Assembly: GCA_039621445.1 (NCBI GenBank)
Contig: CP154954.1
Coordinates: forward strand, 11,071,229 to 11,135,228
Direction of reading: 5' to 3'
Length of the DNA stretch: 64,000 nt
DNA from: Euglena gracilis
Lineage: Eukaryota
The translations under genes were made by a program, and so were the position numbers. Positions 1,299 through 64,000 of this stretch are shown one piece after another (within the stretch, counting starts at the first letter, position 1; each line of letters begins with the position of its first letter). The notes beneath the pieces are model-generated. The model was not told where the DNA came from. It saw only the letters and a program-made list of their open reading frames with translations, and made no database searches.

Positions 1299-1311
1299 NN
1301 NNNNNNNNNNN
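1299..1311. other. Assembly gap (13 N)
   Basis: Run of N; sequence character changes across it. A second short gap lies at 2480-2482. Confidence 0.98.
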
Positions 1312-17926: not shown

Positions 17927-18597
17927 GGATGTTGCATTGAGTTTGGATGAGATTCATGCAAAATCGTGCACCCCCCCGCACTTTGCCCCTCAAAACCGTG
18001 TTTTCGGTGGTCAAAATGCAACTTCCAGCTCACAACGCGCTTTTCACACACCAACCGAAGCATCTTCGGATGCCCGCCATCCAACTCGCAATTTTGTGCA
18101 TCAAATTCGCGATTCGTTGGATGCCAATCCTTCCAAAAGCGCAGTACGCGCACCCCTACAAGCATCTTCGGATGCGCATGTCCTACAAGCATCCACGGAT
18201 GCACATGATCATGAACATGCCTAAAATCGCGATTACAATCGCCCGTTTATACCACAACTTAAGATTCCCCCCCCTACGGGTGAATCCTTGGACGAGGAAC
18301 CGGTTTTTACTACAAAAACCGCAAATCCTCAGGTTTTACAACAAGAAATTTGCGAATCTGGACTGATTCGCGGTATGAGCCATACCCCTACCCCGGGGAT
18401 TGGCCATGAAGCGCTAATGCGAATCACGGAATTTACCGCGATTCCTCGATTTGCGGGTGAACAACGGGATTCCTACTCCCCTGGTATGTTACCACACCCC
18501 GAATCGCGGAATCACGACCCTTTACAATCCGAATCGCGGAATCGCGAAACACAACCATATAATTCGCGAAACGGCGATGTACCAGATACCCATGGTA
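17927..18597 (+). pseudogene. Internal fragment of a family-B gag
   Basis: LIRGMSHTPTPGIGHE matches LVRGMSQHPTPGIG in 41083..42903(-) and the start of 44565-44790. Confidence 0.7.
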
Positions 18598-26600: not shown

Positions 26601-27466
26601 TATTGACCAAAATTTAAAGCATTCCATACGCGTTTCGCGTATACATGCACCCGATTCCCGGGTTGGGGTGACGAAACACAATGAATGGATCCACAAACAT
26701 GCGGGCAGTCTTCCACTTCCTCAAGGGTTAACCCAGGGGAGTTTGGACAGGTTGGGGTTTTCTCCATTCCGCATCAAATCCGTACCAAGTTTGATTGCGA
26801 TTAAAATTAGGAATGACGCTTTTCGCGTTTCTAAACGAGGCTAATCCGCGTTGTTGGAGTGCTCGGTGTATCTCCGCGCATTGCGGGCTACAACCAAGTG
26901 TATCATGGCGTGTGTATTCCGTCTTCGGAATTGTGATTAGTGTCGGATTTTGAACTAGACATCCACAATCGAAATCCGATTGGGTGGATATTCTCCTGCA
27001 GTGCACACATTGGAAGGACGTGTGTTGGTGTGACAGGTGTGCGTGTAAGTGGGTGTCGATGGCATTAGCCGGTGAGTCTTGTACAGGTGTTCCTGGGTTC
27101 GGCACAATTGGTGGGAATCGGCGTGGTGGTGTAGCTGGGCGACTACTCGACACCGTGATCCCTGCAGGCCTTTGGGCTTTCGTCTTGTAACCCAGTGGAA
27201 CGGTGTGGGTACCGCTACCCGCTTGCCCTACCTCATTTGGAACGCATGTAGGTGTGTCATTGGGTAGGAGTGAGGCTTTCTACGTAGCCCGAGTGTGGAA
27301 AACGGTTGTTGGTGTGGTGGATAACGGTGTTGCCACTGTGTGTAACGGTGTTGGAAAACTGGTGGTCATCATAGTGGATGTCAACGGTGATGGTGGTTTG
27401 GGTGGCATTGCAGTGTTGGGTGCTGTGCGCAAACCGTGGGAGTCGTAATCCACAACCAATCGGTAC

Positions 27467-27956
27467 TGTTCACCGGCCCCACCCCCTGTGCGCCGCCGGT
27501 CGCCCCTGCGACCGGCGAGTCCCGGTGGGCCGAGGGCCCGGGGGGGTTCTCGCCGTCGTGGATAACCACCGACAGCAGGGGGGTGGGTGTTTCCGGGGTG
27601 GGGCCTGCGCTTTCTCGGGAAATTGGTGGGCTCAAGCCAACCCCCATTTTTTCACCCAGGTGATTTCCCCAACCCCAGCCGGCGCGTAGGATCGTTTTTT
27701 CAAAGTTTTCCGAAATTTTAGTGAAAAACGATCCTACGCGCCGGCTGGGGTTGGGGAAATCACCTGGGTGAAAAAATGGGGGTTGGCTTGAGCCCACCAA
27801 TTCCCCGAGAAAGCGCAGGCCCCACCCCGGAAACACCCACCCCCCTGCTGTCGGTGGTTATCCACGACGGCGAGAACCCCCCCGGGCCCTCGGCCCACCG
27901 GGACTCGCCGGTCGCAGGGGCGACCGGCGGCGCACAGGGGGTGGGGCCGGTGAACA
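27467..27956. repeat. ~230-bp-arm inverted repeat made of two head-to-head copies of the LTR 3' (U5) end
   Basis: 27467-~27698 is the reverse complement of ~27724-27956, with one mismatch seen and a short spacer. Confidence 0.9.
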
Positions 27957-30900
27957 TGGTTAGCAGAGGTCGGCTCACTGACTTCGTCAGTGAGGTTTTT
28001 TCAGATTCGGTGAACGTTGTTGCAGAGATTTGTTCCGCTGCCTCTGCCAGCAGAATCAGTGCAAAGTTTTCAGATTCGGCTGACATCACAAGCAAAGGTT
28101 GTTTCACTGACCCAGTCAGTGAAAATTTTTCAGAGACGGTCAACACGGTCACAGAGGATTGTTCTGTTGGCTGTGTCAACAGAATGGTACACGAGGGCAG
28201 TTTCACCAACTCAGTTGTCTGTGAATATTCAGAAGAATCTGCAGAAATCTGCTCGTTTTCAGGTCAATCTGTCCGAGTTTCAGATTGTGGTGAAAATTTT
28301 CTGAGATCTGTGGCAGAAATCTATTTTCAGAACGAAAAGGAAACTGAGTTTTCTGCAGCCCAGTTTTCAGAACCTGTGGCATCATTGCAAATCGTGACGG
28401 AATCTGTGGCAGAAAACAATTTTCAGGCTGCAGAAACTTTATCGTCTTCAGAATTTTCAGAAACGACACAGGAATCAGAATCTGATTCTGATTCGGGGAG
28501 GGGGGCAATTACACGCATAAGGCCCATCACGGTGGCAGGGCCAGAAAATTTTCAGCTGGTTCCACTGCACAGCAGTGATGAGGAACCAGACCCCCCAGCT
28601 TACGAAAGTGAAACAGAGGAAGAAAAACAGGCTGAAAACGCAATAATTCAGGAAATGGTTATGCAAAGAATGAAAGCGGCTGGCATGTGGCCAGTAAATT
28701 TTTCAGGTTTTCAGCAAATTTCTGTGTCGTCACGAGACAGCAGCCCAGGGCCAGAACAAAAAATGTTGTGTTTAACAGCCCAGCCAGAACCATTGCTGTT
28801 AACACAGAGTTCAGAAACGCAGTCAGCACAGCCAGCTGCAGCCCAGCTGCAGGTTTTTCAGCCAGCCCAGCAGTTTTCGGCTGAGTCATCTGTTTCAGCA
28901 ATCATGGAGCCAGCCCAGATGACTTCACAGGTTTTTCACCCAGCCCAGCAGTTTTCGGCTGGGTCATCTGTCCCAGCAATCACGGGGCCAGCCCAGATGA
29001 CTTCACAGGTTTTTCAGCCAGCCCAGCAGTTTTCGGCTGAGTCATCTGTTCCAGCAATCATGGGGCCAGCCCAGATGCATGGGCAGGGTTTTCAGCCAGA
29101 GTTAACAATGTCTTCAAACACAGGCCCAGCCCAGGTTTTTCAGCCAATTCAGCCAGATTTTCCACAGACCCAGTCACAGAATTTACAGCCAAACACCAGT
29201 TTTTCTGCAGAAACTGGGTCCGAAAACCCTGAAAATCAGCATGATGTGGAAATGGAATCGGGCTATGGCCAATCTGATGATGATTGGAACAATTGGGGTG
29301 AAGAAATCAGTTGCAAAATTGAATGTTTACATGGCAGACTTTTGGTGCAGGAAGGAAAAAATCCTGAGAAAACGGCTGAAAATCTGGTGGGGGAGGCAGA
29401 AAACAGGCTAAATCGGGCATTGGCCATGTCACATGGGCAGACATTGAATCTGGTCAACGAGGCATTGGGCATGCATGATGGGCGAATGGCTGATCACATT
29501 GCCATGGTGAAACGTGAAATTCAGGCTGAACTGAGTGCAACTGTAAACGACTTGCTTTTGCAGTTTCAGCAAAATGGTGAAATGGTGCAAAATCTGGCCC
29601 AATGCCAAAGGCATTTGTTGGGTGTGGAAATGGAACGGCAGTTTGCTGAAAAAGTGAAGAAAGTGGAGGATGGAGTAAACACGTTTTTTGAGGCCCAGGT
29701 TGAGGGGTTGAGAAAAAATGAGAGGGATTTTTCTCAGAAGCTGTCGTTTTTGGAAAAATCTGTGGGGGAGATGCACGTGGTGGTGCAACAAGTGGGGGAG
29801 AAGGAAAAACAGCAGGGAATTGCTGTTAATCAGGTCAAATCTGCAGTCGGTGAGCTAAGATCTAGTCTGGAGGGACGCTTTGGAGTCATTTTTCAGCAAT
29901 GCAAAGGTTTGGGGGAGACTGAGTGTGCCAAATTTCAGGCACAGGCTGAGAAATTGAAGGAATTTTCACAGTCCCTGGAGCGAGAGAGCAAAGCTCTGAA
30001 TGATCGTTTGGGGAGGTTGGAGAATTTTCTGGGTCGGAAAGATTTTCCCATTGAGAAAGTCTGTGACCTGATTAACAAGAGTGAGGAAACAATTCGGTTG
30101 GAGGTGCAAAGGGAGTTGGGGCTGCAAACGAGAAGGAATTTGGAGGTCATTATCAGTGAAATGTTGCAGGAAAAGTTGAGGCTAAGTGAAAGGGAGGGGC
30201 AGTTTGAAAAAGTGCGGGCTGAAATGGAAAACTCGATGAAACAACAGGTTGGAGTTTTACTGCAACAGCAGTGCGTTGAACTTCAAAAAGAACAGCAGGA
30301 ACGGAAAAAATTGCAACAAAAGCTGGATTTATTTCAGGCTGAGTTTTTGGTGATGAAAAATCAGCAAGCTGAATCTGCCAAATCTGCGACAGTGGATCTG
30401 ACAAAGGAAACGAGAGAAAAATCAGCTGGAAATTCAGAAATCGAGGAGTTTGATCTTTTTGGTTACAACGATTTCCCTGCGATCGAGAAAAATCCGGTTG
30501 AAATTGAAGACTATGAATACGCTGAACCAGGATCACATGCGACACATGTCAGGCAGGTTTGTGCACGACCTGTGGGGGCAGTACCTGCAGGTGCAGGGCT
30601 GGTTTCATCGAATGCAGTGGCAACACATCAATTGATGAAAAACCTGGTAGCTCCAAATTTTTCTGGACAGCCAAAAGACTGGTCGTCCTTTGTGAGGGAT
30701 TGGGATCAATATTTCAGGACGGTGGTTATTTTACAAAATGGAAATGTGTCTGATCCACTCAAACTTCGGCTTTTTGCAATGACTCTGGACGACACGAATC
30801 AGAAGGAATTGCAATTCCGACTGGAATTGAACGGAAAAACATCTTTCGAGGAGGAATTTGACAGGCTTGAAGGGAAATATGCTGGAACTCAATCCGAGTG

Positions 30901-31918
30901 TGCCAGAAAAAAATGGTATGATGTGAACCTCGTGAACCAAGGGAAAATTACCGTACAGGAATGGCGAGATTTTGTCATAAATTTCAGAATAGCCTGGAGA
31001 CAGGTGAAAAGCGCCACTGACGATGAGGCAGAAAGACTGGTCAAGGGAAAACTGCCAAATTTCATTTTGCATTGGGTCGCCGATGAGGAGGAAAGGAAAT
31101 CAACGTGTGGACCGAAAGTCAAAATGTACCCTGGAGTGCCTGCAACCGAGGAAAACATTATTTGTGCTGTGGAACGTGTCACTGGGGAAAAGCCCTGCAA
31201 GGTTTCGAAAGTTTCACCGCTGGAGTTCGAAGTCTTTTTGCCCAACACTACGATTTGCGACAAACTGAAGGAGGTCAGTGGGAAACCAATCACAGGCACG
31301 GATAAAAGGATCAAAATTGTGGAGGAACAGCCAAAAATGGGAGTTGAAGAAATTTTCCGTTTTGTTGAGCGAAAATTGTCTTCCAGGAATTCTCAAGACA
31401 TGATACACAGTTCCAGGGAGCCAAATGCATTTGGAAACCAGAGGGCCAGGTCTGCTAGGGCAGATCGGGCCAAGGGGTCCAGGACACCCTCCCCAGCACG
31501 GTCAGCAAAGGGGGGCGAAGCGGTGGCAAAACCGTCCGTTGGAAAATCAGATTCACAGGTGGCAGCCCCTGCGACCAATGCAAACATGAACCCCCCCGTG
31601 CAAAATCCAGTGCCAGTGGTTCGATCACAGTCATTGCCACCCCCCCAGCAATCTCAATTTGGCAATCGGGGGGGATGGAGAAATGATTCTGCGTGGAATT
31701 CCAATGCCAATGCCAATTTTCAGGGAAATCAGTGGTGGCACTCAAATCAACAGAATTTTGATTCACAGTCTGGTGGTGGCAAAGGCAAAGGCAAAGGAAA
31801 GGGCAAAGGAAACAATTCTTGGGGGAAAGGAAACAATGGAAATGACTGGTCTAGGGGAAAGGGCCAGGATGGTGGAAAAGGCAAAGGAAAAGGAAGGGGG
31901 AAAGGAAACCGTTGCTAG
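27776..31918 (+). CDS. gag: Family A Gag/ORF1, 1380 aa: acidic N-term, 26-aa Gln-rich repeats, long coiled coil, capsid-like region, GK/N/W-rich tail
   Basis: Intact ORF in the gag position with an FSGQPKDWSSFVRDW capsid-like motif. No CCHC knuckle; the true start codon is uncertain. Confidence 0.82.
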   Translation: MGVGLSPPIPRESAGPTPETPTPLLSVVIHDGENPPGPSAHRDSPVAGATGGAQGVGPVNMVSRGRLTDFVSEVFSDSVNVVAEICSAASASRISAKFSDSADITSKGCFTDPVSENFSETVNTVTEDCSVGCVNRMVHEGSFTNSVVCEYSEESAEICSFSGQSVRVSDCGENFLRSVAEIYFQNEKETEFSAAQFSEPVASLQIVTESVAENNFQAAETLSSSEFSETTQESESDSDSGRGAITRIRPITVAGPENFQLVPLHSSDEEPDPPAYESETEEEKQAENAIIQEMVMQRMKAAGMWPVNFSGFQQISVSSRDSSPGPEQKMLCLTAQPEPLLLTQSSETQSAQPAAAQLQVFQPAQQFSAESSVSAIMEPAQMTSQVFHPAQQFSAGSSVPAITGPAQMTSQVFQPAQQFSAESSVPAIMGPAQMHGQGFQPELTMSSNTGPAQVFQPIQPDFPQTQSQNLQPNTSFSAETGSENPENQHDVEMESGYGQSDDDWNNWGEEISCKIECLHGRLLVQEGKNPEKTAENLVGEAENRLNRALAMSHGQTLNLVNEALGMHDGRMADHIAMVKREIQAELSATVNDLLLQFQQNGEMVQNLAQCQRHLLGVEMERQFAEKVKKVEDGVNTFFEAQVEGLRKNERDFSQKLSFLEKSVGEMHVVVQQVGEKEKQQGIAVNQVKSAVGELRSSLEGRFGVIFQQCKGLGETECAKFQAQAEKLKEFSQSLERESKALNDRLGRLENFLGRKDFPIEKVCDLINKSEETIRLEVQRELGLQTRRNLEVIISEMLQEKLRLSEREGQFEKVRAEMENSMKQQVGVLLQQQCVELQKEQQERKKLQQKLDLFQAEFLVMKNQQAESAKSATVDLTKETREKSAGNSEIEEFDLFGYNDFPAIEKNPVEIEDYEYAEPGSHATHVRQVCARPVGAVPAGAGLVSSNAVATHQLMKNLVAPNFSGQPKDWSSFVRDWDQYFRTVVILQNGNVSDPLKLRLFAMTLDDTNQKELQFRLELNGKTSFEEEFDRLEGKYAGTQSECARKKWYDVNLVNQGKITVQEWRDFVINFRIAWRQVKSATDDEAERLVKGKLPNFILHWVADEEERKSTCGPKVKMYPGVPATEENIICAVERVTGEKPCKVSKVSPLEFEVFLPNTTICDKLKEVSGKPITGTDKRIKIVEEQPKMGVEEIFRFVERKLSSRNSQDMIHSSREPNAFGNQRARSARADRAKGSRTPSPARSAKGGEAVAKPSVGKSDSQVAAPATNANMNPPVQNPVPVVRSQSLPPPQQSQFGNRGGWRNDSAWNSNANANFQGNQWWHSNQQNFDSQSGGGKGKGKGKGKGNNSWGKGNNGNDWSRGKGQDGGKGKGKGRGKGNRC
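28850..29100 (+). repeat. 78-bp coding tandem repeat (QVFQPAQQFSAxSSVxAIxGPAQMTS)
   Basis: Three full units here versus two in copy 1 (12994-13149). Confidence 0.85.
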
Positions 31919-32185
31919 GATAGCCGGGGTGGACCGTTGGGGGCGGGAGCCGCCCCGGGCTCGCATACCCAGCCCCACACAAAGACATACACAACTCCCA
32001 GGTGGCAAGAAAAATCTCGTGTGAGTGAAAACACGATGAAAAATCTGCCATCCAAGGAGACTTCTGTGCAAGGTGTGTCCAATGTGTCGGGTGCGTGCGT
32101 GCGTGACGTGCAAATCTGTGACTCGGCCCAAATCTGTAAAAAATCAGATCTCGTAAGAGATCGTGCACAGCCTTCCGTAAAGAAA

Positions 32186-32773
32186 AGAGCTTTAGACCTT
32201 TTTTGCGGTAAAGGCTCGGTTGGGGATTGCCTGAGAGAGCAGGGGTTTAAAGTGATTTCAGTGGATATAAACCCCAGATTTAACCCAACCCACTGTGCAA
32301 ATATTTTGGAGTGGAGATATTGGAGGTACCCCCCCGGATATTTTCAGATCATCGCTGCGGGGGTGCCCTGTACAGAATATAGCTTGGCCAAAACATTGGG
32401 AGTCAGAAATTTGGAGGGGGCAGATCGGCTGGTCAAAAAAACTTTGGAGATTGTCGAATATTTCAAACCAAAGTTGTGGTGGATTGAAAATCCCCGTCAT
32501 GGACTTTTACGCAAAAGACCCTGTGTTCAAAATCTGACTTTTGTCGATTGTGACTAGTGTCAGTTTTCAGATTGGGGATATCAAAAGCCCACCCGAATCT
32601 GGGGGAGCGAAAATCTGAGCAAGCTACAAAACAAACTTTGTGATGGCCAGACCTGCCCGAATTTGATTCCTGGGGGGAGGAGTCACCGAGAAAAGTTGGG
32701 AGGATATGGAATGACAGTTGGCACCCAGAAAAAATGGAGGATGCCCAAACAACTGGTGGAGTATTTGTTAACC
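32186..32773 (+). other. C5-cytosine DNA methyltransferase domain
   Basis: Motif I LDLFCGKGS, II-III VDIN..CANIL, IV GVPCTEYS (catalytic PC), VI IENP, VIII-like QKPTRIW, X-like MPKQLV. Confidence 0.88.
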
Positions 32774-32809
32774 GTGTTGGAACGAAAAAGCGGATATCGT
32801 AGGGAGGAT

Positions 32810-33193
32810 TATGCTGTTAGGAAAGTTTGTATGGAGGAAATTGAGAAGGAATTTCGGGTTAAGGCGGAACGGGATTGTTTTGCAACCAGCCAAAATACCA
32901 GGTGTGAAAAGTTTTACGGGGAGGATGATGATGCCATGAAAAAGGATTGGGGGGCGGAGGAAACGTTGTGGATGAACCCCCCCTGGACTTTGTGGCCTGA
33001 GGTGGCTGAAAAATTGCAAAATTCCAATTGTCGGGCGATTTGCATATGCCCAGACTGGAATAGGAGGTGGGTGAAAAATCTGGTGGAGATGGCTGTCAAA
33101 AAGATTTATCTTCCCAAGGGGACAAAGTTGTTTGAGGCTGATGGGAGGATTTTGAGGGGTACCCGTTGGGGGGTGTGGGCCTTGTTGATTGAT
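32810..33193 (+). other. Dam-like N6-adenine DNA methyltransferase domain
   Basis: DCFATSQN..FY...DAMKKDW....WMNPPW..ICICPDW: the phage-Dam/DIRS-MT type pattern. Confidence 0.85.
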
Positions 33194-36100
33194 AGAAGGC
33201 AACCCTCCCAGGGGGGGGCAGCCCCAGGGAAGAAAAAATTGGTGCGGCTGAAAAAAAGAATGTTGAGGGGGACAAAAACTCGGGGAGGATCGAAGAAACT
33301 TGGGGAGGACAGACAACTGCTGTTAAAAACCCAGATTAAGTTGGCAAATGGGGAGGAAAAAACGGTTAGAATTTTGATTGACACGGGAGCTGAAGCAAAC
33401 CTCATTCGACAAGGGTTGATAGGGGACCACCTAATGTATCCTGCTAAGGACCCGTTAAGGTTTGAAACTGCCAATGGGCAAACTTTGGCGGGGGGGGAGC
33501 AGATGTGCTAAGGTGAAAATGATCCTACAACAAAATTGGAATGAGGAAAGGGAAATTGAGAGGGTGGAATATGAGGTTGAATTTTATGAGGCAAATATCA
33601 AAGTGGATGCAATTCTTTCTTATCCATGGTTGGCAGAAGCAAAACTGGGAATTTTTCCACACCACAAGGCGTTGGTAAAAGACAGCCCCGACCTGATTTT
33701 TTTGCGGGGTGTTGAAAGACGGAGGGGTCCGCAAAAATTCAGGGATGACACAAATTTTTCAGTGGACAATGTGACTGTGGCGGACGGGTCTTCGTTTGGG
33801 TTGCAAAAATTTGGTCTTTGTTTGCCTTTGGAGGGGTTGGACCAGGAATTGCAATTTTTGAGCGATGAGGACCTGGGGGAGGTTGCCACAAATTTGGAGG
33901 GAAGTGACCCCCCAGTGCAAGTTATCAACCGAATGATAATTGCAAGGGAGGGGGAGGACAAAAAAGAGGAGGAAAGGGTAGTCAAGTTGAGGGAACAAGT
34001 TTTGGAAGATTACAGGGGGACGGTATTTCGGTCATCGCCATTTCCAGACCCCCCCGAAAGAGGACAATATGGTTATGCATACATACCTTTGAAGGAGGGG
34101 GCGAAGCCAACCAGACAGAAGCCTTTTTTCATGCACGGTGAGCGGAAAGAGGCACTTGAAAAAATCACCCAAGACTGGCTCGACAAAAAATACATTGAGC
34201 CAGCCACAGCCAAAAATTCTGAATGGCTGTCCCAGACTTTTCCAGTTCCAAAAAAATCCAACGATTTTCCTTGGAGGGGGGTGGTGGACCTCAGGGGCCC
34301 AAACAGCCAAACAAGGCGATGCAACTACCCCCTACCCAAAATTGAAGACATTTTGGTCAAACATGGTGCAAACCAAATGTTTTCGATTATCGATTTGAAG
34401 CAAGCTTTTCACCAACAACCCTTACACCCAGAAAGTCGACCCATAACGTGTTGTTTTACCCCCAAAGGCATTTTTCAGTGGAGGGTGAACGTAATGGGTT
34501 TGACAAATGCCCCCCAGCAATTTCAGCAAATGATCGATGACCGTTTGACACCAGTAAGGGATATCGCCACAGGGTACATAGACGACATACTGGTGGGGAC
34601 AACGGTCGGGGAAGGGGAGGACCTGGTGGGGGCACACGAAAAAGATTGGAGGGTGTTGGAGGTGCTGAAAACAGAACTTTTGGTGGCTGATGAATTCAAA
34701 GCCAAACTTTTCGTTGAGGAGGTCGAATTTTGTGGACAGATTTTAGGAAACGGGACTAGGAGGCCTGCACCGGGTAAGTTACGAGCGATCGAAAAGTGGG
34801 AGGTTCCAAAAACAATTACGGCTTTGAGAGCCTTTTTGGGATTCACAAATTATTACAATGCATACATTCACATGTATGCGGAAGTAGCTGCCCGGCTGCA
34901 AGACAAATTGAAAGTCCCCAGGGAGGTGGGAAAGAAAGGAAGTCGAAAACCTGTGGAATTTGATGGGGAGGATTTAAAAGCTTTTGAGGAGCTGAAAAAA
35001 AGGTTGTGTTCGGGCCTAATGTTGCAACGGGTAGACCCAGATAAACCCTTTGTGCTAAGGGTTGATGCCAGTGGGTACGCCGTGGGGGCAACGTTAGAAC
35101 AAATGAAGGAGGGGGGAGGAAGACCCACAGCCCAGGATGTGATTGAGAAAAAAACTGTGCCAGTGGCTTTTATGTCTCGAAAATTGACCGAGGGGCAAAG
35201 AAAATGGACCCCCAGGGAGTTGGAGACGTACGCCATAATTTTGGCACTACAAAAATGGGAAAGTTGGATTGGATTGCAACCCGTTTTGGTTTTAACCGAC
35301 CACCAAAGTTTGGAGTCTTGGACAAGGGAAGTCCTAGACACCCCCAGTGGTCCGGTTGGGAGGAGGGCGAGATGGCATCAAATTTTCTCCAAGTATGATT
35401 TGACGGTGGGATATATCCCGGGTAAAGAAAATACCATAGCGGATATCCTTAGTCGGTGGGCATACCCAGCTTCACAGGCCTTAAGGGATATAAGTAAGCA
35501 CGGGTCAGCCGAAGACAAGGATGAAATGGAAAATTTTATCCGGGAGGAAAAAGAAGAGGAAAAACAGTGTTTGGAGATAAGAATCAAAAACCAGCCCAAT
35601 TTACGTAATGCCTGGATACGGGGGGTGACAACCCGTAGTGGCAAAAACGTAACCCCTGAGGAGGAAAAAGGAGAGTGCACAAGGAGGGGAACCGAGGGTG
35701 GGGTAGACCCAGGAGGAAAAGACACCCCTGTGGACACCCACTCACAAGGGCCCAGGAAAGAAAAGAAACGAGTTCATTTTTGGGATGAGAAAGTGGGGGG
35801 GGAGACGACCCCTGTCCCGGGGACGGCTGAAAGTTCGAGGGGGGACACTCGTATGGAAGTGGGGGACGCCCTGCCAAGTACGACCCCTAAGGATATTAAG
35901 CCCGTATGGGAGCGTGATTGGGGGGAAGCATATTCCCGATGCCCCACATGGAAAGAAAAATGGGAGGCTACCAAAGGTGGTTCAGTTTGGCCCAAAAGCT
36001 ATAAAGTCTTGAACGGTCAACTGTTTTTCGAGGAAAAGTTGTGTGTGCCTGAAAGTTTTCAACACTTGGTGATTCAAGAAAATCACGAGTTTTTGGGGCA

Positions 36101-37840
36101 CGTTGGCCCTGAAAAAAGTTTGGAAACACATGACAATCCGTTTTGTTTGGGCTGATGAAAAGGCTGCAAAGCAACTCAACCAAAATTGCAGCAAAAATTG
36201 TTACACATGCCAAGCGAGTGTGAGGGGGGAGAGTTTGAAAGGACCGATCGAGTCCACACCCATACCCCCTGCACTAATGACAAGTGTTGCCATTGATTTG
36301 TTTCGGATGCCAAGGGTTTTACACGATGGGGGGGAGTATGACACCCTAGCCCTTTGTGTGGATAGGCATTCGGGTTGGATTGTGGGGGTTGCATGCAAGG
36401 ACAAGGGATTAACCGGAGCCAAGTTGGCTAAGGAAATGGTGAAAAATCAGTGGAGGCCTTTTGGGGTTCCCTCGGTCATCTCAAGTGACCAAGGGAGCCA
36501 TTTCACAAGCACTTGGTGGAAAAACATGTGTGCGCTTTTGGGGATTAGGCAAGCATATTCCCAAGCATACCACCACCAAGCAAACGGGAGGGTTGAGAGA
36601 GCCGGACAACAGGTGATGGAGGTGTTGAGAAAATTGTACGTGGAGGAAAAAATTAATTGGGTTGAAGCTTTACCCCAAGTTTTGGACCGAATTCATGACG
36701 TAAAGGGGGAAAGCGGATTGAGCCCATATGAAATTGTGACCGGTAGGGAAAGACCATTGGCAGGGGTACCCTACCAACCACCCAAAGAATGTGAGGATTC
36801 GGTGGAGTTTTTCCGAAGGATGCAAGACATTGATGGGAGGGTGGCTAGGATACTCAACAAAAAGCATGAGGAGGAGGTGGCAAGGATAAATAAGGGGAGG
36901 AAAGAAATGGAACCCCTAAAGGTGGGGACGACAGTTTGGTATAAGAGACCCGAGGGGTCGGGTGAGAAGCTTGACTCTAGGTGGGTGGGACCTGGGGTCG
37001 TGAAGGGAAGAGAGGGGGAACGGAGTTATGTAATTGAGATGAAATCTGGGGTGGAGACGAAAGCTCATAGGAGTTTTTTGAAGAAGTATCGGGAACCCCA
37101 AGTGGAAGGTAAGGGGGTGCCTCTTTTTTATTATAAACGAACCGAAAAAGAAGAAGAGGCATTACCTGATGAGTGGGAGGTGGAAAAAATCGTAAGGCAC
37201 CGGAAAGGAAAAGATGGAAAGTGGGAATTTTTAACAAAGTGGGTCGGATATGAGGACGGGGAGGAGACCTGGGAACCGGCAGGAAATTTCATTCACCGTT
37301 TCAGTGGAGAGTTTGTAAAGTATTGTCGTGAGAAAAAAGTGAAAATGGACATAATGTCCGAACTTAAAATTGACGGTGGGCCGTAGGCTCTAAGGTGAGC
37401 CATAAGGCCCTGTCCAAAGGCTCTACGGTGAGCCTAATGGGAAGGCAAAGTGCTGTTTTTAAAATTCAAAAACCCGATTTGCACGTCCGTGTGGGTGTGA
37501 GTGCACGCACACACGCGTGAGCGTGTAAAGGAGAGAATGTACAAATGCAAGGATTTGCAAGGAGAATGGAGAAAGGTAAAAAAAAAAAAAAGGCCCCGCA
37601 AGGGGGCCGGGGCACCTCAGCATATTCGCCGCCGCATTGCTGTTGTACTCGCCCCACTGCGCTTATATTTGCCCCACCGCACTTATATTTGTACTTGTAC
37701 TCGCCCCACTGCGCCTATATTTGCCGTCCTCCCCTCTTCCCTCCCGGTGTTGTAGGTTTGGAGATTGATTCTTTGAGATGATGGATTACATTACGGTTGG
37801 GAGCTTTTGGTCATATTATGAGCCCCCCCTTCGGTTTTGC

Positions 37841-38175
37841 AAAATCCCCCCGGCCCGAGGAGGGGGGGGGGGGCTTGAATTTTTTAAAAATCCCCCCGGC
37901 CCGAGGAGGGGGGGGGGGCGCTTGAATTTTTGACAAAAATCCCCCCGGCCCGAGGAGGGGGGGGGGGGCGCTTGATTTTTGGACAAAAATCCCCCCGCCC
38001 CGGGGAGGGGGGGGGGGGGCGCTCGTTTTTTTGAAAAAATTCCCCCCGGCCCGAGGGGGGGGGGGGGGGCGCTCGATTTTTTGACAAAAATCCCCCCGGC
38101 CCGAGGAGGGGGGGGGGCGCCAACCGAATTTTTACCAAAAATCCCCCGACCCGGTGGAAAGGGGGGGGGGGCAGA
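37841..38175 (+). repeat. ~50-bp G/C-run tandem repeat, about 7 units, in the family A 3' UTR
   Basis: AAAATCCCCCCGGCCCGAGGAG(G)nCGCTTGA(A)TTTTT recurs near 37841, 37887, 37937, 37986, 38037, 38087 and 38137. Confidence 0.88.
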
Positions 38176-38442
38176 TCTTGGTGAAGACCCTCATTCCACC
38201 CGTGAGAAGCGGGGGGAGGGGGGGGGGGGGGCAGCCAAATATCCATTGGTTGGTGAACCGAATCTTTCCCAAGGGTTCGAAGGCACTTGAAAGCCATAGT
38301 CCCTGAATTTTGTTTCCCGTTTGGTTGGTTCAAGGGATCATGTGTGGGACATAGGCTTTGGGTGAAGGAGTGCCAATTGGAGGAGTTCCCCCCTCTTTGG
38401 TGAGGGGGGGGGGGCGAGTTTTTGGTGTCCGACTAAGGTCGC

Positions 38443-38453
38443 AAGGGAGGGGG
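38443..38453 (+). promoter_or_regulatory. Polypurine tract
   Basis: AAGGGAGGGGG immediately before the TGT of the 3' LTR. Confidence 0.85.
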
Positions 38454-39300
38454 TGTCGGCCGCCGGCTTTCGCCGGCAGCCAAAAATTGCCAGAAAGCAC
38501 AAATTCCAAAGTCGCGGGTAACAGCCAATCAGTTACAAAAACCCGCGACACAAATTGGAAGCGGGTCAAATTACTTTCCACCTTCAAATTCTGTTTTTTC
38601 ACAGAACTTGAGGGGTTTTCCCCATTATCCCCATTATTTGGCAAAGCGGAAATACATTGAAGTGGATTTGATCAATCACATTGTTGAATTGGAATTGACA
38701 GTTACCTTGTTGGTCATTGCATTGTTGGTGGAGTCATTGAAGTCAATTTGGTATTGAAATCAAGAAGGAGAACCCTACAACACCGCCAACCTCACCGCTG
38801 CCCTTACCCCCTTCCCCCTTCACCTCCTTGCCCCAAGGTTTGCACATTTCATACATTCACATTTCACAGTTTCAGTTTCAAGTGTCTTCTCATTCAAGTT
38901 TCGGAGTTTCAGAATTCAAGTTTCTTTCAGTTTTGGCTTCAAAGTTCCAAGTTTCAGTGGGTTGGTTTTTGCCTACAAGGTGTGTGAGAGAGAGAGAGGA
39001 GAGAAGTGAGATTTGCACACCAAATGGCAGATTTTTTGTTTTTCACAAAAATTTCGGAAAACATTGAAAAAACGATCCTACGCGCTGGCTGGGGTTGGGG
39101 AAACCACCTGGGTGAAAAAATGGGGGTTGGCTTGAGCCCACCAATTCCCCGAGAAAGCGCAGGCCCCACCCTGGAAACACCCACCCCCCTGCTGTCGGTG
39201 GTTATCCACGACGGCGAGGACCCCCCCGGGCCTTCGGCCCACCGGGACTCGCCGGTCGCGGGGGCGACCGGCGGCGCACAGGGGGTGGGGCCGGCGAACA
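38454..39300 (+). repeat. Family A 3' LTR (847 bp)
   Basis: TGTCGGCC...GGCGAACA; homologous to 11318-12169. Confidence 0.9.
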
Positions 39301-39304
39301 GTAC

Positions 39305-56864: not shown

Positions 56865-59427
56865 AGGGCTATGCCCGATTTCCCCTTTGGACCAGGCATT
56901 CTGGCCACAGGGATTTCGGACACAGACCTGGTCTGTGGGAGGTGCACCCTGGCGCATCCACAGGGGCCCTTTCCGTCGCACAGGGGTCAACTCAAAGGGG
57001 GGGGGAAAGGAGGGGACCCAAAAAGCCCAAAACGCGCAAAATGGTTTCACCTATTCTGCGGTGGCTTATGGGTATATAGTATATTATAGCCCACTGGGGA
57101 AAATGGGGCTGGCAGGTTTCCTTGCCAAGCAAACCCATCCACCCAGTTTAGGTGTGCCCAAGGCACTTGGGGTTGGGTCCATGGGCGTTCCAGGAAAACC
57201 CATGGGGAGGGTGTGGAAGGAGGGGGCCTCTGACCAGTCAAACCTGGGCAGGGCGAATGGCCAGTCAAACCTGACCACGTAAAAGGAAATCCTACTATAC
57301 AAAACCAACTGCCGGCGACAGCATTTGGGGGGAGAGTAGAGAGGAGTGGGGGGTTGGCTTAGGCCAGAAAAGTTGAGCTGTCTGGCAGCCTTATGGCCTC
57401 AAACGGGCCGAGAAGAAAATAAAGGGAAAGGAAAGAGGCCGTCAGCCCTGTGCGCTGCGTGTCGCACGCCCGCGAGAGGGGAGAGGGGAGAGGGGTGTGC
57501 ATGCATGCGCACGGAATCCTGCACATGGCAGCATCCCGGTGGGAACTTACTAGCGGCGAATACCGCAAAGGGTCTTCGAAGGGGTTGTTCGGGCGAATAC
57601 CCAAAAAGGGTGTCAGGCGAATACCTGACGAGGGTTCTGAAAGCCGCCGCATTGGCGCTCACAGACACCTCACCTGCCTTTATCGGCTGGACGTTCGCGC
57701 ACCTCACGCCAGTAGTCGTGTTGGGGGTCCCCTAATGGGTCCTCAACCAACTCCAGTTGGCGTGGGGAACACGGCATAGCTGATTCACTCCGAATGGTGT
57801 TGAGCTCCGGATCGTTGGCATCAAAGGAAGGGGTCTCCCAGTCCTTGATCCAATTATCCGGCAGCTTCTCCCTGGTACGTTCAGCATGATGCTGAAGGTA
57901 CCGTTGGAGCTGCTCCCAGAAAATTGTGGGCAGCATCACCGGCCAGATGATGTAATTCATCTGGGGGTGATTCGCAGGCACCTGCGGGGGCATCCCCGGG
58001 GTCTGCTTGAAGTTGATGTCATGTATCCACCTCGCTGTCCGAGCTCTTGCGGTATGGGGCCGTAATACAGCCGCCAACCAACCTCTGAAGTCCACCAAAT
58101 CGTGTTCTTCAGGAGGCCACAGTGGCAAGGCGTATCTTCCATGCTGACGCTTGGAGAACAGGGGGTAAACCTGTGTCTCCCAGTCCCCATCGGTTCAGAG
58201 GTAAGGCATTCTTACCTTGGCGTGTTCCTCGACGGCGAGGCGCATTGCCCCAGCGTCGATCTGGAACTCAGGGGCCATTCCCGTGTGGCGGTAGCTTTCT
58301 ACCTTGCGGAAGTCGGAGTGCTTCAGGCGGCCTTCCACCTGTTCGTACTCCTTCTTCCACTTCTCCATTGTCTCCCAGTGGTGGAGGACAATGGTGGTGA
58401 CTGCTCCATCAGCAGTCTGCACGAACCTGGCCCCTATACAGTTGATGCTCAAGGCAGGGATATCCCTGTCGTGAGCATTCTCACTGTAGGAGTAGTTCAA
58501 GCTGTGCTTCGAGGCGTTCAGGCACTCGCCACATACGAGCGCCACACAGTTCGGCACATATGCCCTGTGATGGAACCACGAGGATTGCACCTGCCGCTTG
58601 CACACATGCACAAGCGGTTGGTTGTGCCGCACATGGTGGCACACGGTGCACGTCCAGGCAAAGGACGTGCCGTGCTGGAAATCCAACACGCAGTCCTCAC
58701 CAAAGTACTGTGCCAGTACTCTGGGTGAGCGCCTATTCCAGAATGTCCAGGTATGTTCCGGGACATAGTGGAAAGGTTCTCCTCGGACGAAGAGGGGCTG
58801 AATCCATCGATTCAGTGACCCTTTCTGGTGCCTAATAGCAGCCAGTTTCTTCGTCCTCTCTTCCACGGTGCCTAGTCTGGTCAGGATATCCTGAGTCCAG
58901 AGCTGGGCATCCGCAGACACAGGAAGTGAAGCAGGTTCATCCTGCTCCTCATCCGTCGATCCGGCGGAAGACTGGGCCTGTCGACCACGAGCCTTACCTT
59001 TCGGTTTGCTCTGGCCGTACCCGGACGATGCAACGGCCGAATAGTCGTGCATTGTCGTAGGGCCTTTCGGCTGTCCGCCAGTCTGACCTCCAGCGCCACC
59101 TTTCGGTGGTGGTTTCCCATCACCGCCTTTGGCAGGGGGCTTACAGGGTGCAGCACCCAGTTTGCCTCCTTTCGGCTTCGCACTCCCGGAATCAGGAGGC
59201 GATGCCTGCGGCTTACTCCTGGTATCAGGAGCCGATGGTGCCGGAGTAGACGCTTGCCGTCTGGGCGAAGCGGGCATGATGGCCGCTGCGTCACGCGTGA
59301 CGCCCCGAGGAGTGGGCACTCGTTCCTGGGGTTGTTCAGTCTGCCGCCGCCGAGCAGGTTCATCCCGTCCGACGGGGCGTGGCACTGTGGTCGTTACCGG
59401 AATCGGTGCTTCCACAGGTGCTGATAC

Positions 59428-61094
59428 TGTGGGCGGCGCCAGGTTTAAAATTTAAAAACCCAAAATTGAATTAGGAGGCGCCTATCCTAATTACAAAATT
59501 TCTGTTTTTGCAGCTGCAACTGTCCTGAACTCTTTGACTCAAGGAAGGCCTGAGCGCCAGATGAAGATTTCAAGTCTTGGTTTGTGCCATGCTGAAGGAA
59601 AGTGAGTGCTGGAAAGGAAAAGTTTTCAAGTTTGACCACCAGTGGGTACAAGGAGACACTCAGAAAACACAAAGAGTTCAATTGTTGCTCAAGGCCTGGA
59701 GGCCAAAAGTCAGCCAGTTTGGCCAGAAGAAATGGACATTTCAGAAAGTGTCAAGTCAGTGATTGTCAATGATGAAAAAATCTGGGAAGATCAATGCTGC
59801 AGAAAACTGGGCTGGAAATCTGAGCTGTATGCAGTAAAATTTCAGTATGTTGTTGAAATCATTGACAGATTGGGATTGAAGACCCCCAACATTGATGCAT
59901 TCAGTTTGGAAGAAAGCAAGAGATTCAAATGCTGGTGGGGACCTGGGTCACAATTTGTGGAAGATTCCTTCACAGTGAAGTGGACACATTCCATTGTTGG
60001 ATTGTTGTGGGCAAATCCCCCCTTCAGCCTCATTGCAAATGTCATCCGCAAGCTGAAGAAGGATCATGGTCATGCGGTGTTGGTTGTCCCAAAGTGGGTT
60101 ACTGCCCCCTGGTGGGAAGATCTTCAAGACATTGTTGTCAGAATGCTGGAGTATCCTTGTGCCACGCCGTTGTTTGAGTTGGTTGGGGCAGGGTTCACAG
60201 TCCCCCCCACAAAATGGCCAGTACAAGTGGCATTTGTCTGTGGAACGATAAGTCAATGTTTCAAATTGGCAAAAGTTCCCAATTCAATTTCAAGTTCAGC
60301 AAAAAGGAGAGTGAGGAGGCAAAAGATGAAAGGAGGGTCCTCCCCACAAGTGCCCCTTAGGCTCCAGGTCGGCACAGGGGACAGCCCAAATTTCAGTGAT
60401 TCAAGTGGTGAAGTCTCTTTGCAATGATTGTGTGTTCAATCTGAGCCCCCTCCTTGCAAAGTGGGCTTTGAGTTTGTGCTGGCCAGTGGCCCAGGCCCAG
60501 GGCCCAGGTCGGAGAACCGCTACAAGGGGGCCTACCCACAGGCCCTGGGACTCCCCCTGGCAGCCCCCCACTGGCCCCCTCATCCCAGGAGTGCCCTGGG
60601 GAAGGTTGGGAGGGGGACCAACCTTTCCCAGGGTGCCCCAAGGGCTCTGGGGTGGGCTGGTGGCCCTGTGGCCCCCCTACTTGTGCTGGACATTTTTGGA
60701 CTAAATCCCTGTCAGCTGTATTATATCCCTGACTCAGCGTTCAAAAATTTAAAAAAAACAAATTTCAGCCGCCCCCCCCAAAAAAGGCCAATTTTGGCGC
60801 CGCAAAAAATTGCCGAAGGCAGTGGGCACGAAGTGTCCAGAGAGGGGTGTGTGGGCGGCGCCAGGTTTAAAATTTAAAAACCCAAAATTGAATTGGGAGG
60901 CGCCTATCCTAATTACAAAATTTCTGTTTTTGCAGCTGAAACTGTCCTGAACTCTTTGACTCAAGGAAGGCCTGAGCGCCAGATGAAGATTTCAAGTCTT
61001 GGATTGTGCTATGCTGAAGGAAAGTGGGTGCTGCTGGAAAGGAAAAGTTTTCAAGTTTGACCCCCAGTGGGTACAAGGAGACACTCAGAAAACA
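59428..61094 (+). mobile_element. TRIM-like mini LTR element (1667 bp), TSD ATAC
   Basis: Direct repeats 59428-59669 and 60850-61094 (TGT...ACA); ATAC at 59424-59427 and 61095-61098; PPT AGAGAGGGG at 60839-60847. The empty site is visible in the paralogue near 680-700. Confidence 0.9.
59732..60427 (+). CDS. Stand-alone Dam-like N6-adenine DNA methyltransferase (231 aa from the first ATG; frame open from 59642)
   Basis: IDAFS...DSFTVKW...LWANPPFSLI..VIRKL...AVLVVPKW..APWW, followed by a basic NLS-like KRRVRRQKMK. Confidence 0.85.
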   Translation: MDISESVKSVIVNDEKIWEDQCCRKLGWKSELYAVKFQYVVEIIDRLGLKTPNIDAFSLEESKRFKCWWGPGSQFVEDSFTVKWTHSIVGLLWANPPFSLIANVIRKLKKDHGHAVLVVPKWVTAPWWEDLQDIVVRMLEYPCATPLFELVGAGFTVPPTKWPVQVAFVCGTISQCFKLAKVPNSISSSAKRRVRRQKMKGGSSPQVPLRLQVGTGDSPNFSDSSGEVSLQ

Positions 61095-64000
61095 ATACAC
61101 CCGGAAACTCTCCCATTGTCCGTGGGACGGCAGGGATCCTGCGGGGTGTCGGTGGTCGTGGGGGTATTTCTTCCACTTCCATTTTGACATCCGGTCGAGG
61201 AGGTTGATCCTCCACAACCGCTGGCGCAGGTGCTACGGCAGGTTGATCCTCCGTTGTAGCCGTTGCGACAGATGTCTCTGTCGGTTGGGGTTCATCCCCT
61301 GAAGATGGTTGCGCTGCTGCCGGAGGTGGGGTGCCGGGACACCGATATCCGGCGTCTCCACAACCTCAGTGGCAGAGCTTGATACTACGCCTCCACCTCG
61401 TGGCGTCAGTGCAGAAGCCACGGCAGTAATGCCAGTGACGACGGCGCCGAGCACACGGCCTCCTAATGAGGTGCGTGCTGTGGGGCTGGCAGGTTCTTCG
61501 AGGGTATCCTCGATGACCATACCAGTCACCTCAGCTTCAGGCTCAGCCTCCGGGAGAGGCGTTGCAGCCACAGGTATATCCCCTGTGGGTGCTTCGTCTG
61601 GCCGAGGCTGTGCCGGGGCAGGCAGAGAAGCGTAGAGGATAGCCTCCACGTTCTCGCCTTCCTCCTGAGGGAGTTCCTCGTCTCCACCTGCCGGTGGACA
61701 GACGGGAGCCGCCGCCGCGGGGGCCGGGGAGACTGATCGTTCCCCTGCCGCCCGTGGGACAGAGACGAAGGATACAGCCGTCCCTGTCGGAGACAGCGGC
61801 GCTGCCTCCAGGATAGTGACGGAGGTGCTGCGGTCGCGATCCTCTCGCCGCGTAATCGCGGTGGTGGAAGCGACTGAAGCCTCACGTCTCCTTCGCGCCA
61901 GAGGTTCATCCTCCGGGGCGATGAAGGCGCGCAGATCCTCGGGCGAACGCGGATCGTCGGGGTGCCATCGGCATCCCTGAGCATCCGCCAGCCTGTAAAA
62001 GGCCAGCGTACTGCTGCGGGGCTGTTGGGCCAGGGTGGCGGCCATGATGGCTGCACCCAGGCGTTGGCAGGCCTTTTTGGGCCCAGAACACCGCGGTAAC
62101 GCGTGTTTTCCCAGACGTTGAAAACGCCCTCCTCGAACTCCTGAACGCATGCCAGAATCGGCATACGCTGTTCGAGGATGGCCTCCGGGTGACACATCAG
62201 CGGGAGGAATACCTCCCGGTCGAGGGTACCGCCAAACTGTCGCCGCAAATGTTCCTCCATGCTGATATCAGCCAGGTGCCAGTTGGGGCGCAGGTGGCCG
62301 AGAATCCGACGACGAGGACCCTCGATGGCGTCACCGTAATTCGGTGGCAGGCTTTCCATACCAGGCCTATCGTCCTGGGGGTCACGGAGATGTATATACA
62401 CCTCCATGACATGGGTGGTCCAGGCTCGCCACCAGAACTGCTGCAGCATAAAAATACGCTGCTTTTGGACGCGGCGACTTTTGCCCTGGACATCCGGGGC
62501 GTCGCGGCACACATGCATATAAGCATGCGGCGTCCCATCTGCAGGCCCGGGTTTTCCCGAGGCGGTGGAGGACTTCCGCGCACGCCTAATCCCCAGAAGT
62601 CGACAGGAAATTACTGCCGGCAGTACTTACAGCAGAGGTCTTACCTCTGCGGGTAAGCCAGGGAAACGCGCTTAACGCGGAAGGTGGAGTCGTAATGGCT
62701 CACCAGCCACACCTGGAGGTTGTTGCACCACAACACCTCGATCAGGCGTTCGATGTCGGGGTGTAGTGGGTAGAATTCCTACTGCACGCCGAGGGGTCCG
62801 ACTGTATGAATACAGTCGTAGATTGCCTTCAGCCTTCGGGCCAACACACGCTGGTCCCGAAATCTCAACTGGTGCAGGTAACTGCGACCAGTGGAGTCGC
62901 TGAAGAGACCCCAGTTCTGGCAGGGGTATCCCAGCCAAAACCAGAGCTCCCAGAAACCTGGCTGGGTTTCCAGCAAGGGTCTGCGACCTTCACCTTCGAA
63001 GGCGTACAGATCTATCCCGTAATGGAATAGTCTGACTCGGTTCTCGCTGTGGCGTAATACCACATCGATGACTGCTTGTGGAGGGGTGACGGGGCGGTTT
63101 CCTGCAATATGGTAACCATGCTGCATTCGCCAGCCTTCGTCCTCCAGCTCCTCCTTGAACCTGAGCATATGCTCAAAGTCCGAGAGGACTTCTGCTGGTT
63201 CCTCTTCCTCCTCACGTGCTGTTCCCTTACCTTTACCCTCACCCTTCCCTTTGCCGGCCACGTCTTTGCCTTCTCCCTTGCCTTTGCCCTCAGCCCTGCC
63301 TGTGTCCTTTCCCGTCTGGGGAATACCAGAGGGTCGGGCGCTCGGTGCCGCCGGAGTCGGTTCGGTTCCTTCCCATTCCATCTCTGGGGAGGGACCTGGC
63401 CGACCCGCTGCACGTCGCGGTGACGGCGTGGCTGGGGGTTGGCTAGGAGTCTGGCGTGGGCTTGGCTTCGGCGCAGGTGGTCGCGGCTCCTTCCATACCG
63501 GAGGGAGCGGCGGTGGTGGTATTGCGGCAACAGGACGGCTCATCGCCACCTGTGCCTCTGCCGGTGGTTTTCCAGCCGGGGTATCCTGGCTGGCTTCCAC
63601 CTGCATCGCCACACCGCCTTCCGCGTCCCGTGGGCTGGGTCGCCTGGGCTGTGGGGTAAGGTTCTCCGTAGTCCTGTCGCGCTGCAGGGTGGCAGGTAAT
63701 ACTGCCACACCTGCCGGGGGCTAGCCGGGTAATACCGGGGTTGCCACCCGCAGCTGCGGCTGGTACGGATGGCATGGGGTGTATCCACGGCCTGAAGGGC
63801 AGCCAGAGAGGAGTAATACCTCGACCGGTGCTCTTCAGACACGAATACTGGCTCCTGCAGGAAGTGCCGAGCAAGCTCATCCTGCTCGGTTTCCGGAGGT
63901 GCCATGTGATAGTAGGGAGTCTCCTGCCGACGGATGATATCCGCAGTCTGGACAGGAGCTGCACTGGGCGGTCGGGCTGCCACACGGTGGGGAGGTTCAT

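Follow-up and report, generated by a model that had tools for sequence, protein, structure and literature searches.

A 1.67-kb non-autonomous LTR retrotransposon of Euglena gracilis whose only recognisable cargo is a Dam-like methyltransferase ORF

A compact element bounded by long terminal repeats (LTRs) resides at positions 59428-61094 of a 64,000-nucleotide stretch of Euglena gracilis DNA (GenBank assembly GCA_039621445.1, contig CP154954.1, positions 11,071,229 to 11,135,228 of the forward strand), which we call the window. Our analysis confirms that this element of 1,667 base pairs (bp), hereafter the mini, is a genuine, cleanly inserted, multi-copy and expressed non-autonomous LTR retrotransposon, and that an intact Dam-like open reading frame (ORF) is its sole recognisable cargo. 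The explanation we favour, to which we give slightly better than an even chance, is that the mini keeps the cis signals for replication together with one gene, that a helper acts in trans, and that the Dam-like ORF is retained because it serves the persistence of the family. The parts of the mini, and the unoccupied site with which its insertion can be compared, are as follows.

59424 to 59427, no strand: left copy of the ATAC target site duplication; a lone tetramer in the empty paralog and a 4-letter joint in sequencing run X1.
59428 to 59669, plus strand: 5' LTR, 242 bp, TG to CA (blastn, global alignment).
59500 to 59513, plus strand: pyrimidine tract and AG, spliced-leader acceptor, with the exon starting at 59514 (run X15, contig 18).
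59526 to 59536, plus strand: LTR segment complementary to the primer-binding site (PBS), a putative self-primer also present in the 3' LTR (exact 11-mer, paired in folds).
59670 to 59680, plus strand: predicted PBS of the self-priming type, directly after the 5' LTR and without a TGG start (sequence, shuffles, fold).
59732 to 60427, plus strand: Dam-like methyltransferase ORF, 231 amino acids, stop included (homology, model, fold search).
59801 to 60259, plus strand: methyltransferase domain, residues 24-176, with NPPF at 60014-60025 (matched range in relatives, conserved residues).
60302 to 60331, plus strand: basic tail K191-K200, KRRVRRQKMK (like patch in stand-alone relatives).
60428 to 60838, plus strand: non-coding 3' part of the internal region, containing a perfect hairpin of 19 bp at 60591-60636 (fold z -0.53).
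60839 to 60847, plus strand: predicted polypurine tract (PPT), 2 nucleotides 5' of the 3' LTR (read from sequence).
60850 to 61094, plus strand: 3' LTR, 245 bp (blastn, global alignment).
61095 to 61098, no strand: right copy of the ATAC target site duplication (empty sites).
1 to 1298, minus strand: unoccupied paralog of the host repeat, with the empty site at 688-691 (self-comparison of the window).

The two LTRs are direct repeats that are 96.3% identical across 245 columns by blastn, and a global alignment gives 6 mismatches and one 3-nucleotide indel (Kimura two-parameter distance 0.025). Both have the TG at the start and the CA at the end that are expected of LTR retrotransposons, and the LTR-to-LTR period is 1,422-1,425 bp. 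As such elements also require, a PBS adjoins the 5' LTR and a PPT, a purine run at 60839-60847 (AGAGAGGGG at 60839), adjoins the 3' LTR; both are predicted from sequence. The 696-nucleotide ORF takes up 59% of the 1,180-nucleotide internal region. A supposed internal repeat of the LTR start region was rejected, since it is merely a 21-nucleotide, 81% match at 60744. The GC-rich hairpin in the 3' non-coding region has only sub-threshold miRNA-like matches in Rfam (the best scores 27.8 bits against a gathering score of 87), and its region folds no more stably than shuffled sequences. One contig of run X1 omits 64 bases, from 60580 to 60645, with the hairpin among them.

Apart from the Dam-like ORF, no scanned frame of the mini has a family match. 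Among the 31 frames of at least 45 amino acids that overlap it, the eight largest other stop-to-stop frames (80-149 amino acids) were scanned and gave no Pfam match at E <= 0.1. Neither blastn nor tblastn against the whole window finds a resemblance to its reverse transcriptase (RT) and integrase genes; the only matches are the mini itself and three distant Dam domains. No gag, RT or integrase was found in the mini, and it does not have the set of gag, protease, RT, RNase H, integrase and chromodomain that marks an autonomous Ty3/gypsy chromovirus.

Empty sites prove that the mini was inserted as a single unit of 1,667 bp. A paralog of the surrounding host repeat lies in the window in reverse orientation, with 1-688 matching 61786-61097 (88%) and 691-1298 matching 59423-58816 (94%). 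At its junction stands a single tetramer, GCAC, where the filled site has ATAC, the element and ATAC again. In run X1, two contigs link 59423 straight to 61095 and so omit 1,671 bases, the 1,667 of the element plus 4, with four letters that fit either side; other contigs of that run link nearby positions with 5-38 unlike letters between them, and correspond to host-repeat copies that have diverged further. The unoccupied copies show that the ATAC duplication is no chance match. Removing the mini and one ATAC gives a minus-strand frame of 499 amino acids across the junction, as against 418 before; the host repeat's long open frame has 448 amino acids in the paralog.

These empty sites also bear on the proposal that the mini was not made by an integrase, and is instead an element of the DIRS type or some other type, a host Dam gene that came to lie between two solo LTRs, or an artefact of assembly. 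According to the main text of the preprint 10.64898/2026.05.21.726589, Dam domains are a usual component of DIRS elements. One relative of the ORF, protein P0004, has the order RT, RNase H, Dam. We regard the proposal as highly improbable, given that the whole 1,667 bp is missing as one unit where a single tetramer stands, that contigs of independent runs show the same order of parts, and that the mini contains no tyrosine recombinase and no inverted or split terminal repeats such as define DIRS elements. To our knowledge, DIRS elements also make no target duplication. Thus the preliminary description of this DNA, which had read from the letters a pair of LTRs of ~243 bp, a 4-bp duplication and a PPT at these coordinates, an uninterrupted ORF for an NPPF-type methyltransferase with a basic tail, and no gag, RT or integrase, agrees with the alignments, the empty sites, the frame scan and the comparison with the pol genes of the window; its view of the mini as non-autonomous with the methyltransferase as the only cargo stands as well.

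The mini family has many sequence-distinct copies. P0001, a protein from another data set, is 96% identical to the mini's product over all 231 residues and shares its start and stop. The contig that encodes it measures 1,460 bp, about one LTR-to-LTR period plus a k-mer overlap, a length that an assembler would be expected to yield from such an LTR element. The P0001 frame extends upstream into LTR-derived sequence, which is fused in frame with the Dam ORF. Part of the stretch is held by 20 of 24 listed sequencing runs, from 16 studies, and contigs were compared for four of them (X1, X9, X12 and X15), with depths left as depths and not converted to copy numbers. Overlapping contigs of X15, X9 and X12, from organisms labelled A, B and C, together give the order 5' LTR, ORF, spacer, 3' LTR. 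Up to 13 sequence-distinct contigs of run X1 cover single ORF positions, and six contigs of that run match from 59428 on while the flanks that precede them are mutually unlike (agreement 0.47). A diverged contig of run X9 matches the LTR to 59670 and then continues for 78 letters, beyond the LTR end, that find no place on the window. A single-copy accident, which the preliminary description had named as the outcome contrary to its reading, is therefore not what P0001, the 13 contigs and the six unlike flanks present.

The Dam-like ORF is uninterrupted, and its frame is open from stop to stop from 59636. A HMMER phmmer scan of 1.84 billion representatives gives 1,560 relatives at E <= 0.001 and 237 at E <= 1e-10, several of which carry the Pfam Dam domain (PF05869), so that by similarity the product belongs with the eukaryotic DAM family. 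The same holds for its residues. In an alignment of 66 sequences, the invariant F57, N95, P120 and W122 are all present in the mini's ORF, as are the near-invariant P52, D55, G70, W84, W93, P96, P97, K107, F148 and W162, and the NPP-aromatic catalytic motif is among the features shared with the family. In the ESM Atlas, the ORF matches only unnamed eukaryotic clusters, one of which has PF05869 on 11% of its members. No meaningful match emerged when the family profile was used to search Protein Data Bank chains by sequence (E 0.58), and scans of metagenome contigs, with either the ORF or a nine-sequence alignment as query, found no relative.

An AlphaFold2 model of the product has an average predicted local distance difference test score of 82.8, rising to averages of 95-98 in the ten-residue blocks of residues 31-150, and resembles a Rossmann-type methyltransferase. 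Two methods agree that the best solved fold is the cap-specific adenosine N6-methyltransferase PCIF1/CAPAM (6irx): Foldseek gives E 9e-5 and a TM score of 0.45, and VIA-align gives Z 11.5 with a root-mean-square deviation of 3.2 over 146 aligned residues, 2.5 Z above the next row. Further VIA-align rows are rRNA adenine methylases (Z 8-9), T4 Dam (Z 7.9), E. coli Dam (Z 7.5) and M.TaqI (Z 7.5). The modelled 231-residue product is thus predicted to have a class I amino-methyltransferase fold of the N6-adenine kind, a fold that does not tell a DNA substrate from an RNA one.

We surveyed 151 relatives (P0001-P0151), namely the 150 listed from the phmmer scan and P0004. NPP followed by an aromatic residue occurs in 138 of the 151, and 105 of the 151 are at most 300 amino acids long. 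Among the 138, the protein ends no more than 150 residues past the motif in 123, and a basic patch lies 60-160 residues past it in 59. Stand-alone relatives of 190-260 amino acids, 36-50% identical to the mini's product, share its layout of start, Dam domain, basic patch and stop. Because they end with a like patch, the basic tail is not peculiar to this copy. Contigs of 1.0-2.4 kb carry all of the closest relatives. Among longer proteins, the search yielded only P0004, which is 39% identical over 35% of the query, and no close polyprotein emerged from the protein searches. Two relatives from outside the window, P0009 and P0038, run past the Dam domain into a segment, LDLFSGTGS.., which we take to resemble motif I of C5 cytosine methyltransferases; this would mean an order of Dam followed by a DNA methyltransferase (DNMT), opposite to that in the elements of the window.

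Transcription of the mini is indicated by run X15, a run of 49 million letters that we guess to be RNA; none of the sequencing runs listed as holding the stretch is listed as RNA. Contig 18 of this run is 827 nucleotides long, spans 59513-60326 with 19 differences from the window, and has a depth of 14. It begins with nine letters that do not fit the window, TTTTTTTTC, in front of the G at 59513, and with that G they read TTTTTTTTCG, which are the 3'-most nucleotides of the Euglena gracilis spliced leader as given in passages of PMC2663770 and PMC4778363. The junction directly follows the pyrimidine tract and AG inside the 5' LTR. The contig is probably a spliced-leader trans-spliced mRNA of the mini or of a near copy, as far as one contig of a probable RNA run goes. 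The junction also points to a euglenid host. A second X15 contig spans 60330-60679, and the run has no cover on 59420-59503 or 60680-61099, so that it is uninformative on where the transcript starts and ends. In the spliced-leader mRNA, ATGs ahead of the Dam start open a 14-codon upstream ORF (59552-59596) and a 57-codon frame (59589-59762); most other copies have G rather than A at 59589, which abolishes the second upstream ATG.

A message processed like ordinary Euglena messages, with the spliced leader at an LTR AG, is also what would be expected of a host gene in the making, in which one or more Dam-only copies have been domesticated, the LTR serves as promoter and trans-splice acceptor, and the copy number dates from old bursts. 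Although the conserved catalytic core would suit such a gene too, we consider this improbable: the window copy sits inside another high-copy repeat and shows the LTR decay typical of a dead insertion, variant copies are many, and the PBS, PPT and LTR ends have stayed intact, although a domesticated gene would have no need of them.

The PBS of the mini does not start with TGG. Its 11 nucleotides are the exact reverse complement of the LTR segment at 59526-59536, and the same 11-mer is found in the 3' LTR. When the LTR was shuffled, 11 of 20,000 shuffles reached a complement of at least 11 nucleotides with six offsets allowed, and the observed match lies at offset 0. Minimum-energy and centroid folds of 59514-59700 both pair the PBS with the LTR segment and add a GCAAC/GUUGC stem. 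The overall fold energy of the 5' region is not better than that of shuffles (z 0.29), and the evidence is the specific PBS pairing only. Passages in PMC4600332 and PMC6317226 describe Tf1, Tj1, the Tf1/Sushi group and Tcn1 chromoviruses as priming from a 5' segment of their own mRNA rather than from a tRNA. The mini is predicted to share this feature, a PBS complementary to the 5' part of its own transcript, and we propose a putative pairing of its PBS with the 11-nucleotide segment of its own LTR instead of a tRNA. No tRNA genes were found in the window. The complement begins 13 nucleotides past the spliced-leader junction. In Tf1, the stretch from the RNA 5' end through the complement serves as the primer and is left uncopied.

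How old the mini is, and whether its ORF is under selection, can be gauged from differences between copies. Relative to the family majority, several differences occur in one LTR only (59588 and 59638 in the 5' LTR; 60895, 61003 and 61027 in the 3' LTR), and the LTR pair therefore dates the insertion, at ~1.25% change per site. Eight ORF positions (59754, 59755, 59760, 59777, 60246, 60284, 60311 and 60354) differ from the window in all four runs compared; they are all the differences in the ORF-covering contigs of X9 and X12, and P0001 carries the same residues. All eight differences from the majority form are non-synonymous, in an ORF with 149 synonymous and 544 non-synonymous sites. Six of them give V10G, K16E, T172R, S185P, V194M and P208H, and the two in codon 8 together give Ser, as in P0001. 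Seven of the eight fall outside residues 24-176, a domain that makes up 66% of the ORF (binomial about 0.003, in a post hoc test). A change of ~1.25% predicts about 6 changes in the 459-nucleotide domain, against at most 1 seen (Poisson P about 0.02). This is a hint, suggestive at best, of constraint on the catalytic core, and there is none on the tails.

Such a hint matters because the ORF may be a neutral passenger, left between the PBS and PPT when a deletion or template switch removed the rest of a Dam-carrying LTR element, amplified by a helper as a short RNA, and still open because too few mutations have occurred since insertion. We take this to be a real possibility, albeit one we would wager against. 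By our estimate, ~1.25% change per LTR leads to some 9 changes in 693 nucleotides, and an open frame would be likely by chance; the eight non-synonymous differences, and the diverged copies in run X1, one of them gapped, are also what a passenger would present. The main text of 10.64898/2026.05.21.726589 points the same way, in that 46.1% of eukaryotic DAM proteins are without transposable-element features and are seen as mostly degenerate remnants, and no activity appeared in E. coli. A passenger accounts less readily for a domain of this size with at most one of the eight differences, for the intactness of every conserved residue, and for a second copy, P0001, that is open from the same start to the same stop. 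Nor would it lead one to expect a compact stand-alone architecture with a basic tail in distant relatives, or a spliced-leader-capped mRNA (one contig of a probable RNA run) that covers the ORF.

The explanation we favour, in which the ORF is kept for the family's persistence, starts from the demonstrated insertion of a single 1,667-bp unit into a highly abundant host repeat, with a 4-bp duplication of the kind integrases make. Gag, RT/RNase H and integrase would be supplied in trans by an autonomous, self-priming (Tf1/Sushi-like) Ty3/gypsy element that we infer to lie elsewhere in the genome. Self-priming would turn the RNA 5' end into a primer that is not copied, such that the leader and the 12 nucleotides before the complement would not disturb strand transfer, and one trans-spliced RNA could serve as both messenger and template. 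The Dam-like ORF would be kept as it helps the family persist. By analogy with the model for Dam-LTRs in the main text of 10.64898/2026.05.21.726589, where the enzyme marks cDNA or new insertions with N6-methyladenine (6mA) and so leads to permissive chromatin, the mini's enzyme might mark cDNA or new insertions with 6mA for the same end. The preliminary description supposed that the enzyme would benefit its own element in cis. The basic tail would act as a nuclear-import or nucleic-acid-binding signal.

A bolder version of this explanation, which we think unlikely, holds that the mini is a satellite retroelement selected to keep a nucleic-acid adenine methylase that would mark the element's own RNA, its RNA:DNA intermediates or its insertions. 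Self-priming would let the leader-capped messenger double as template, and the proteins that consist of a Dam domain and a basic tail would represent a wider class of minis. If this were true, a helper-dependent element would control its own epigenetic or epitranscriptomic state.

Several points weigh against a retained, functional Dam ORF replicated by a helper. The match of the ORF to Pfam Dam is itself sub-threshold (E 0.015; 15.4 against 28.1 bits). Eight non-synonymous differences out of eight fit neutrality (P about 0.14) and not strong purifying selection, and the argument that changes avoid the domain is post hoc and rests on 8 changes, with 93 further rows of differences not displayed. 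At the eighth difference, residue 172, the window copy has T where its closest relatives share Arg. Many copies of the mini are probably decaying, as some of those in run X1 have diverged by 7-10% and one is gapped within the ORF. The spliced-leader junction comes from a single contig (depth 14) of one run that is guessed to be RNA. No autonomous partner was found in the window or in the protein searches, and the three chromoviruses of the window match the mini in the Dam ORF only, at 22-26% identity. Finally, the main text of 10.64898/2026.05.21.726589 reports that eukaryotic DAMs expressed in E. coli gave no 6mA, and that the LTRs of E. gracilis are expressed at low or undetectable levels.

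These chromoviruses are located at 11905-17930 (plus strand, truncated), 27724-39300 (plus strand) and 27729-22952 (minus strand). Their frames jointly match C5-DNMT (E 2.9e-5), Dam (E 5e-11), aspartic protease (weakly), RT, RNase H, integrase and chromodomain. In the element at 27.7-39.3 kb, one frame runs from a 1,397-amino-acid region that matches nothing in Pfam through a C5-DNMT-like segment to Dam and a weak protease match, so that DNMT lies upstream of Dam; this frame is broken by in-frame stops at 31916-31918 and 32555-32557. RT/RNase H and then integrase/chromodomain frames follow downstream. Its LTRs are about 233 bp long and 97% alike (27724-27956 and 39068-39300), and its PBS starts with TGG. 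Within 27463-27956, two LTRs of the same family stand head to head, 27463-27729 being the reverse complement of 39038-39304 and 27724-27956 a direct copy of 39068-39300; therefore, two chromoviruses of opposite orientation abut or overlap by a few bases.

The possibility that the mini is a deletion derivative of these chromoviruses was considered and rejected, given Dam domains of such low identity, LTRs that are unrelated (as read for elements A and B), and a PBS of the TGG type where it was read. Elements A and B have no LTR complement like that of the mini. The preliminary description had called the mini a parasite of autonomous chromoviruses; those of the window share no LTR, PBS or priming mode with it, and its partner is a matter of inference.

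The host repeat into which the mini is inserted extends over 58195-59427 and 61099-62600 (minus strand) and again over 1-1349 (plus strand), and is far more abundant than the mini in every DNA run compared. Its long frame has no Pfam match and no usable match in the ESM Atlas. Parts of the repeat are also represented among the contigs of the probable RNA run. Assembly gaps, seen as runs of N, occur at 1299-1311 (13 bases, adjoining the paralog with the empty site) and at 2480-2482 (3 bases). Elsewhere in the window, 4655-11081 is occupied by a 6.4-kb LTR element on the minus strand, with 512-bp LTRs that are 99.6% identical, an ACGG target site duplication, a TGG-type PBS and long frames of 987, 395 and 327 amino acids that have no Pfam match; this element is young. 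A tandem array at 37858-38159, with a period of about 50 nucleotides (5 copies of a 101-nucleotide register, 71-100% alike), separates the integrase/chromodomain frame of the large chromovirus from its 3' LTR.

The mini offers a natural test of what Dam-like enzymes do for transposons. Dam-like methyltransferases in retrotransposons have only just been recognised, and the sole direct assay in print, as given in the main text of 10.64898/2026.05.21.726589, is negative. In an element that has no gag, RT or integrase and retains a Dam ORF, replication signals and expression, the enzyme stands apart from the other retrotransposon functions. A single genome would allow 6mA, transcription and the history of copy number to be set side by side for minis with an intact Dam, minis with a dead Dam, solo LTRs and LTR families that have no Dam, and the 231-amino-acid protein is a small natural construct for biochemistry. 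The mini also means that at least some "orphan" Dam-only sequences are complete mobile units and not debris, and it prompts one to ask how LTR retroelements manage to replicate where the host's mRNAs are trans-spliced.

Among known systems, the mini's product is nearest in solved structure to PCIF1/CAPAM, a likeness of modelled fold by which the substrate is not shown. PCIF1 too uses an NPPF motif. It differs from the mini's product in being a large RNA-cap enzyme with extra domains, and the two are 13-15% identical. With DIRS elements the mini shares the Dam domain family and the position of the domain, which usually ends its ORF (as in the 123 of 138 NPP-bearing relatives noted above), and it differs in having LTRs and a target duplication and no tyrosine recombinase.

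[quoted passage not shown] It is not itself a TRIM, as these are very small and have a short non-coding internal domain (described in PMC6934838), whereas the mini is 1.67 kb long and holds a 696-nucleotide intact enzyme ORF. Its priming would resemble that of the Tf1/Sushi group, whose members have a PBS complementary to part of their own transcript, close to its 5' end, according to passages of PMC4600332 and PMC6317226. The mini has no RT by which it could be placed in that clade, and its complement starts some way inside the message, after the spliced-leader junction. The complement in Tf1 is the first 11 nucleotides of the mRNA.

The closest comparison is with Dam-LTRs, an established class that, in the main text of 10.64898/2026.05.21.726589, is enriched in 6mA and includes the "EpiLTRs" of Euglena gracilis and Cymbomonas, Ty3/gypsy elements that combine Dam, DNMT and chromodomain. 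Methyltransferases in LTR elements are thus not unheard of, and the opposite background view is outdated. The large chromoviruses of the window show the EpiLTR combination of that paper and join Dam to a Ty3/gypsy-type RT in one element, which the mini does not. As in these elements, a Dam of the eukaryotic family (NPP motif, PF05869-like) lies between LTRs in the mini, and the host group is probably the same. The mini differs in having no RT, integrase, protease, gag, DNMT or chromodomain, in a Dam only distantly related to those of the window elements, and in a PBS predicted to be self-priming where elements A and B have the TGG type. The words "non-autonomous" and "solo" are absent from the main text of 10.64898/2026.05.21.726589, and our literature search found no Dam-only or methyltransferase-only non-autonomous LTR element, although the supplementary tables of that paper may list the family among the orphans. 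LTR elements that carry Dam are already known, in Euglena as elsewhere, and the Dam-only non-autonomous form is new.

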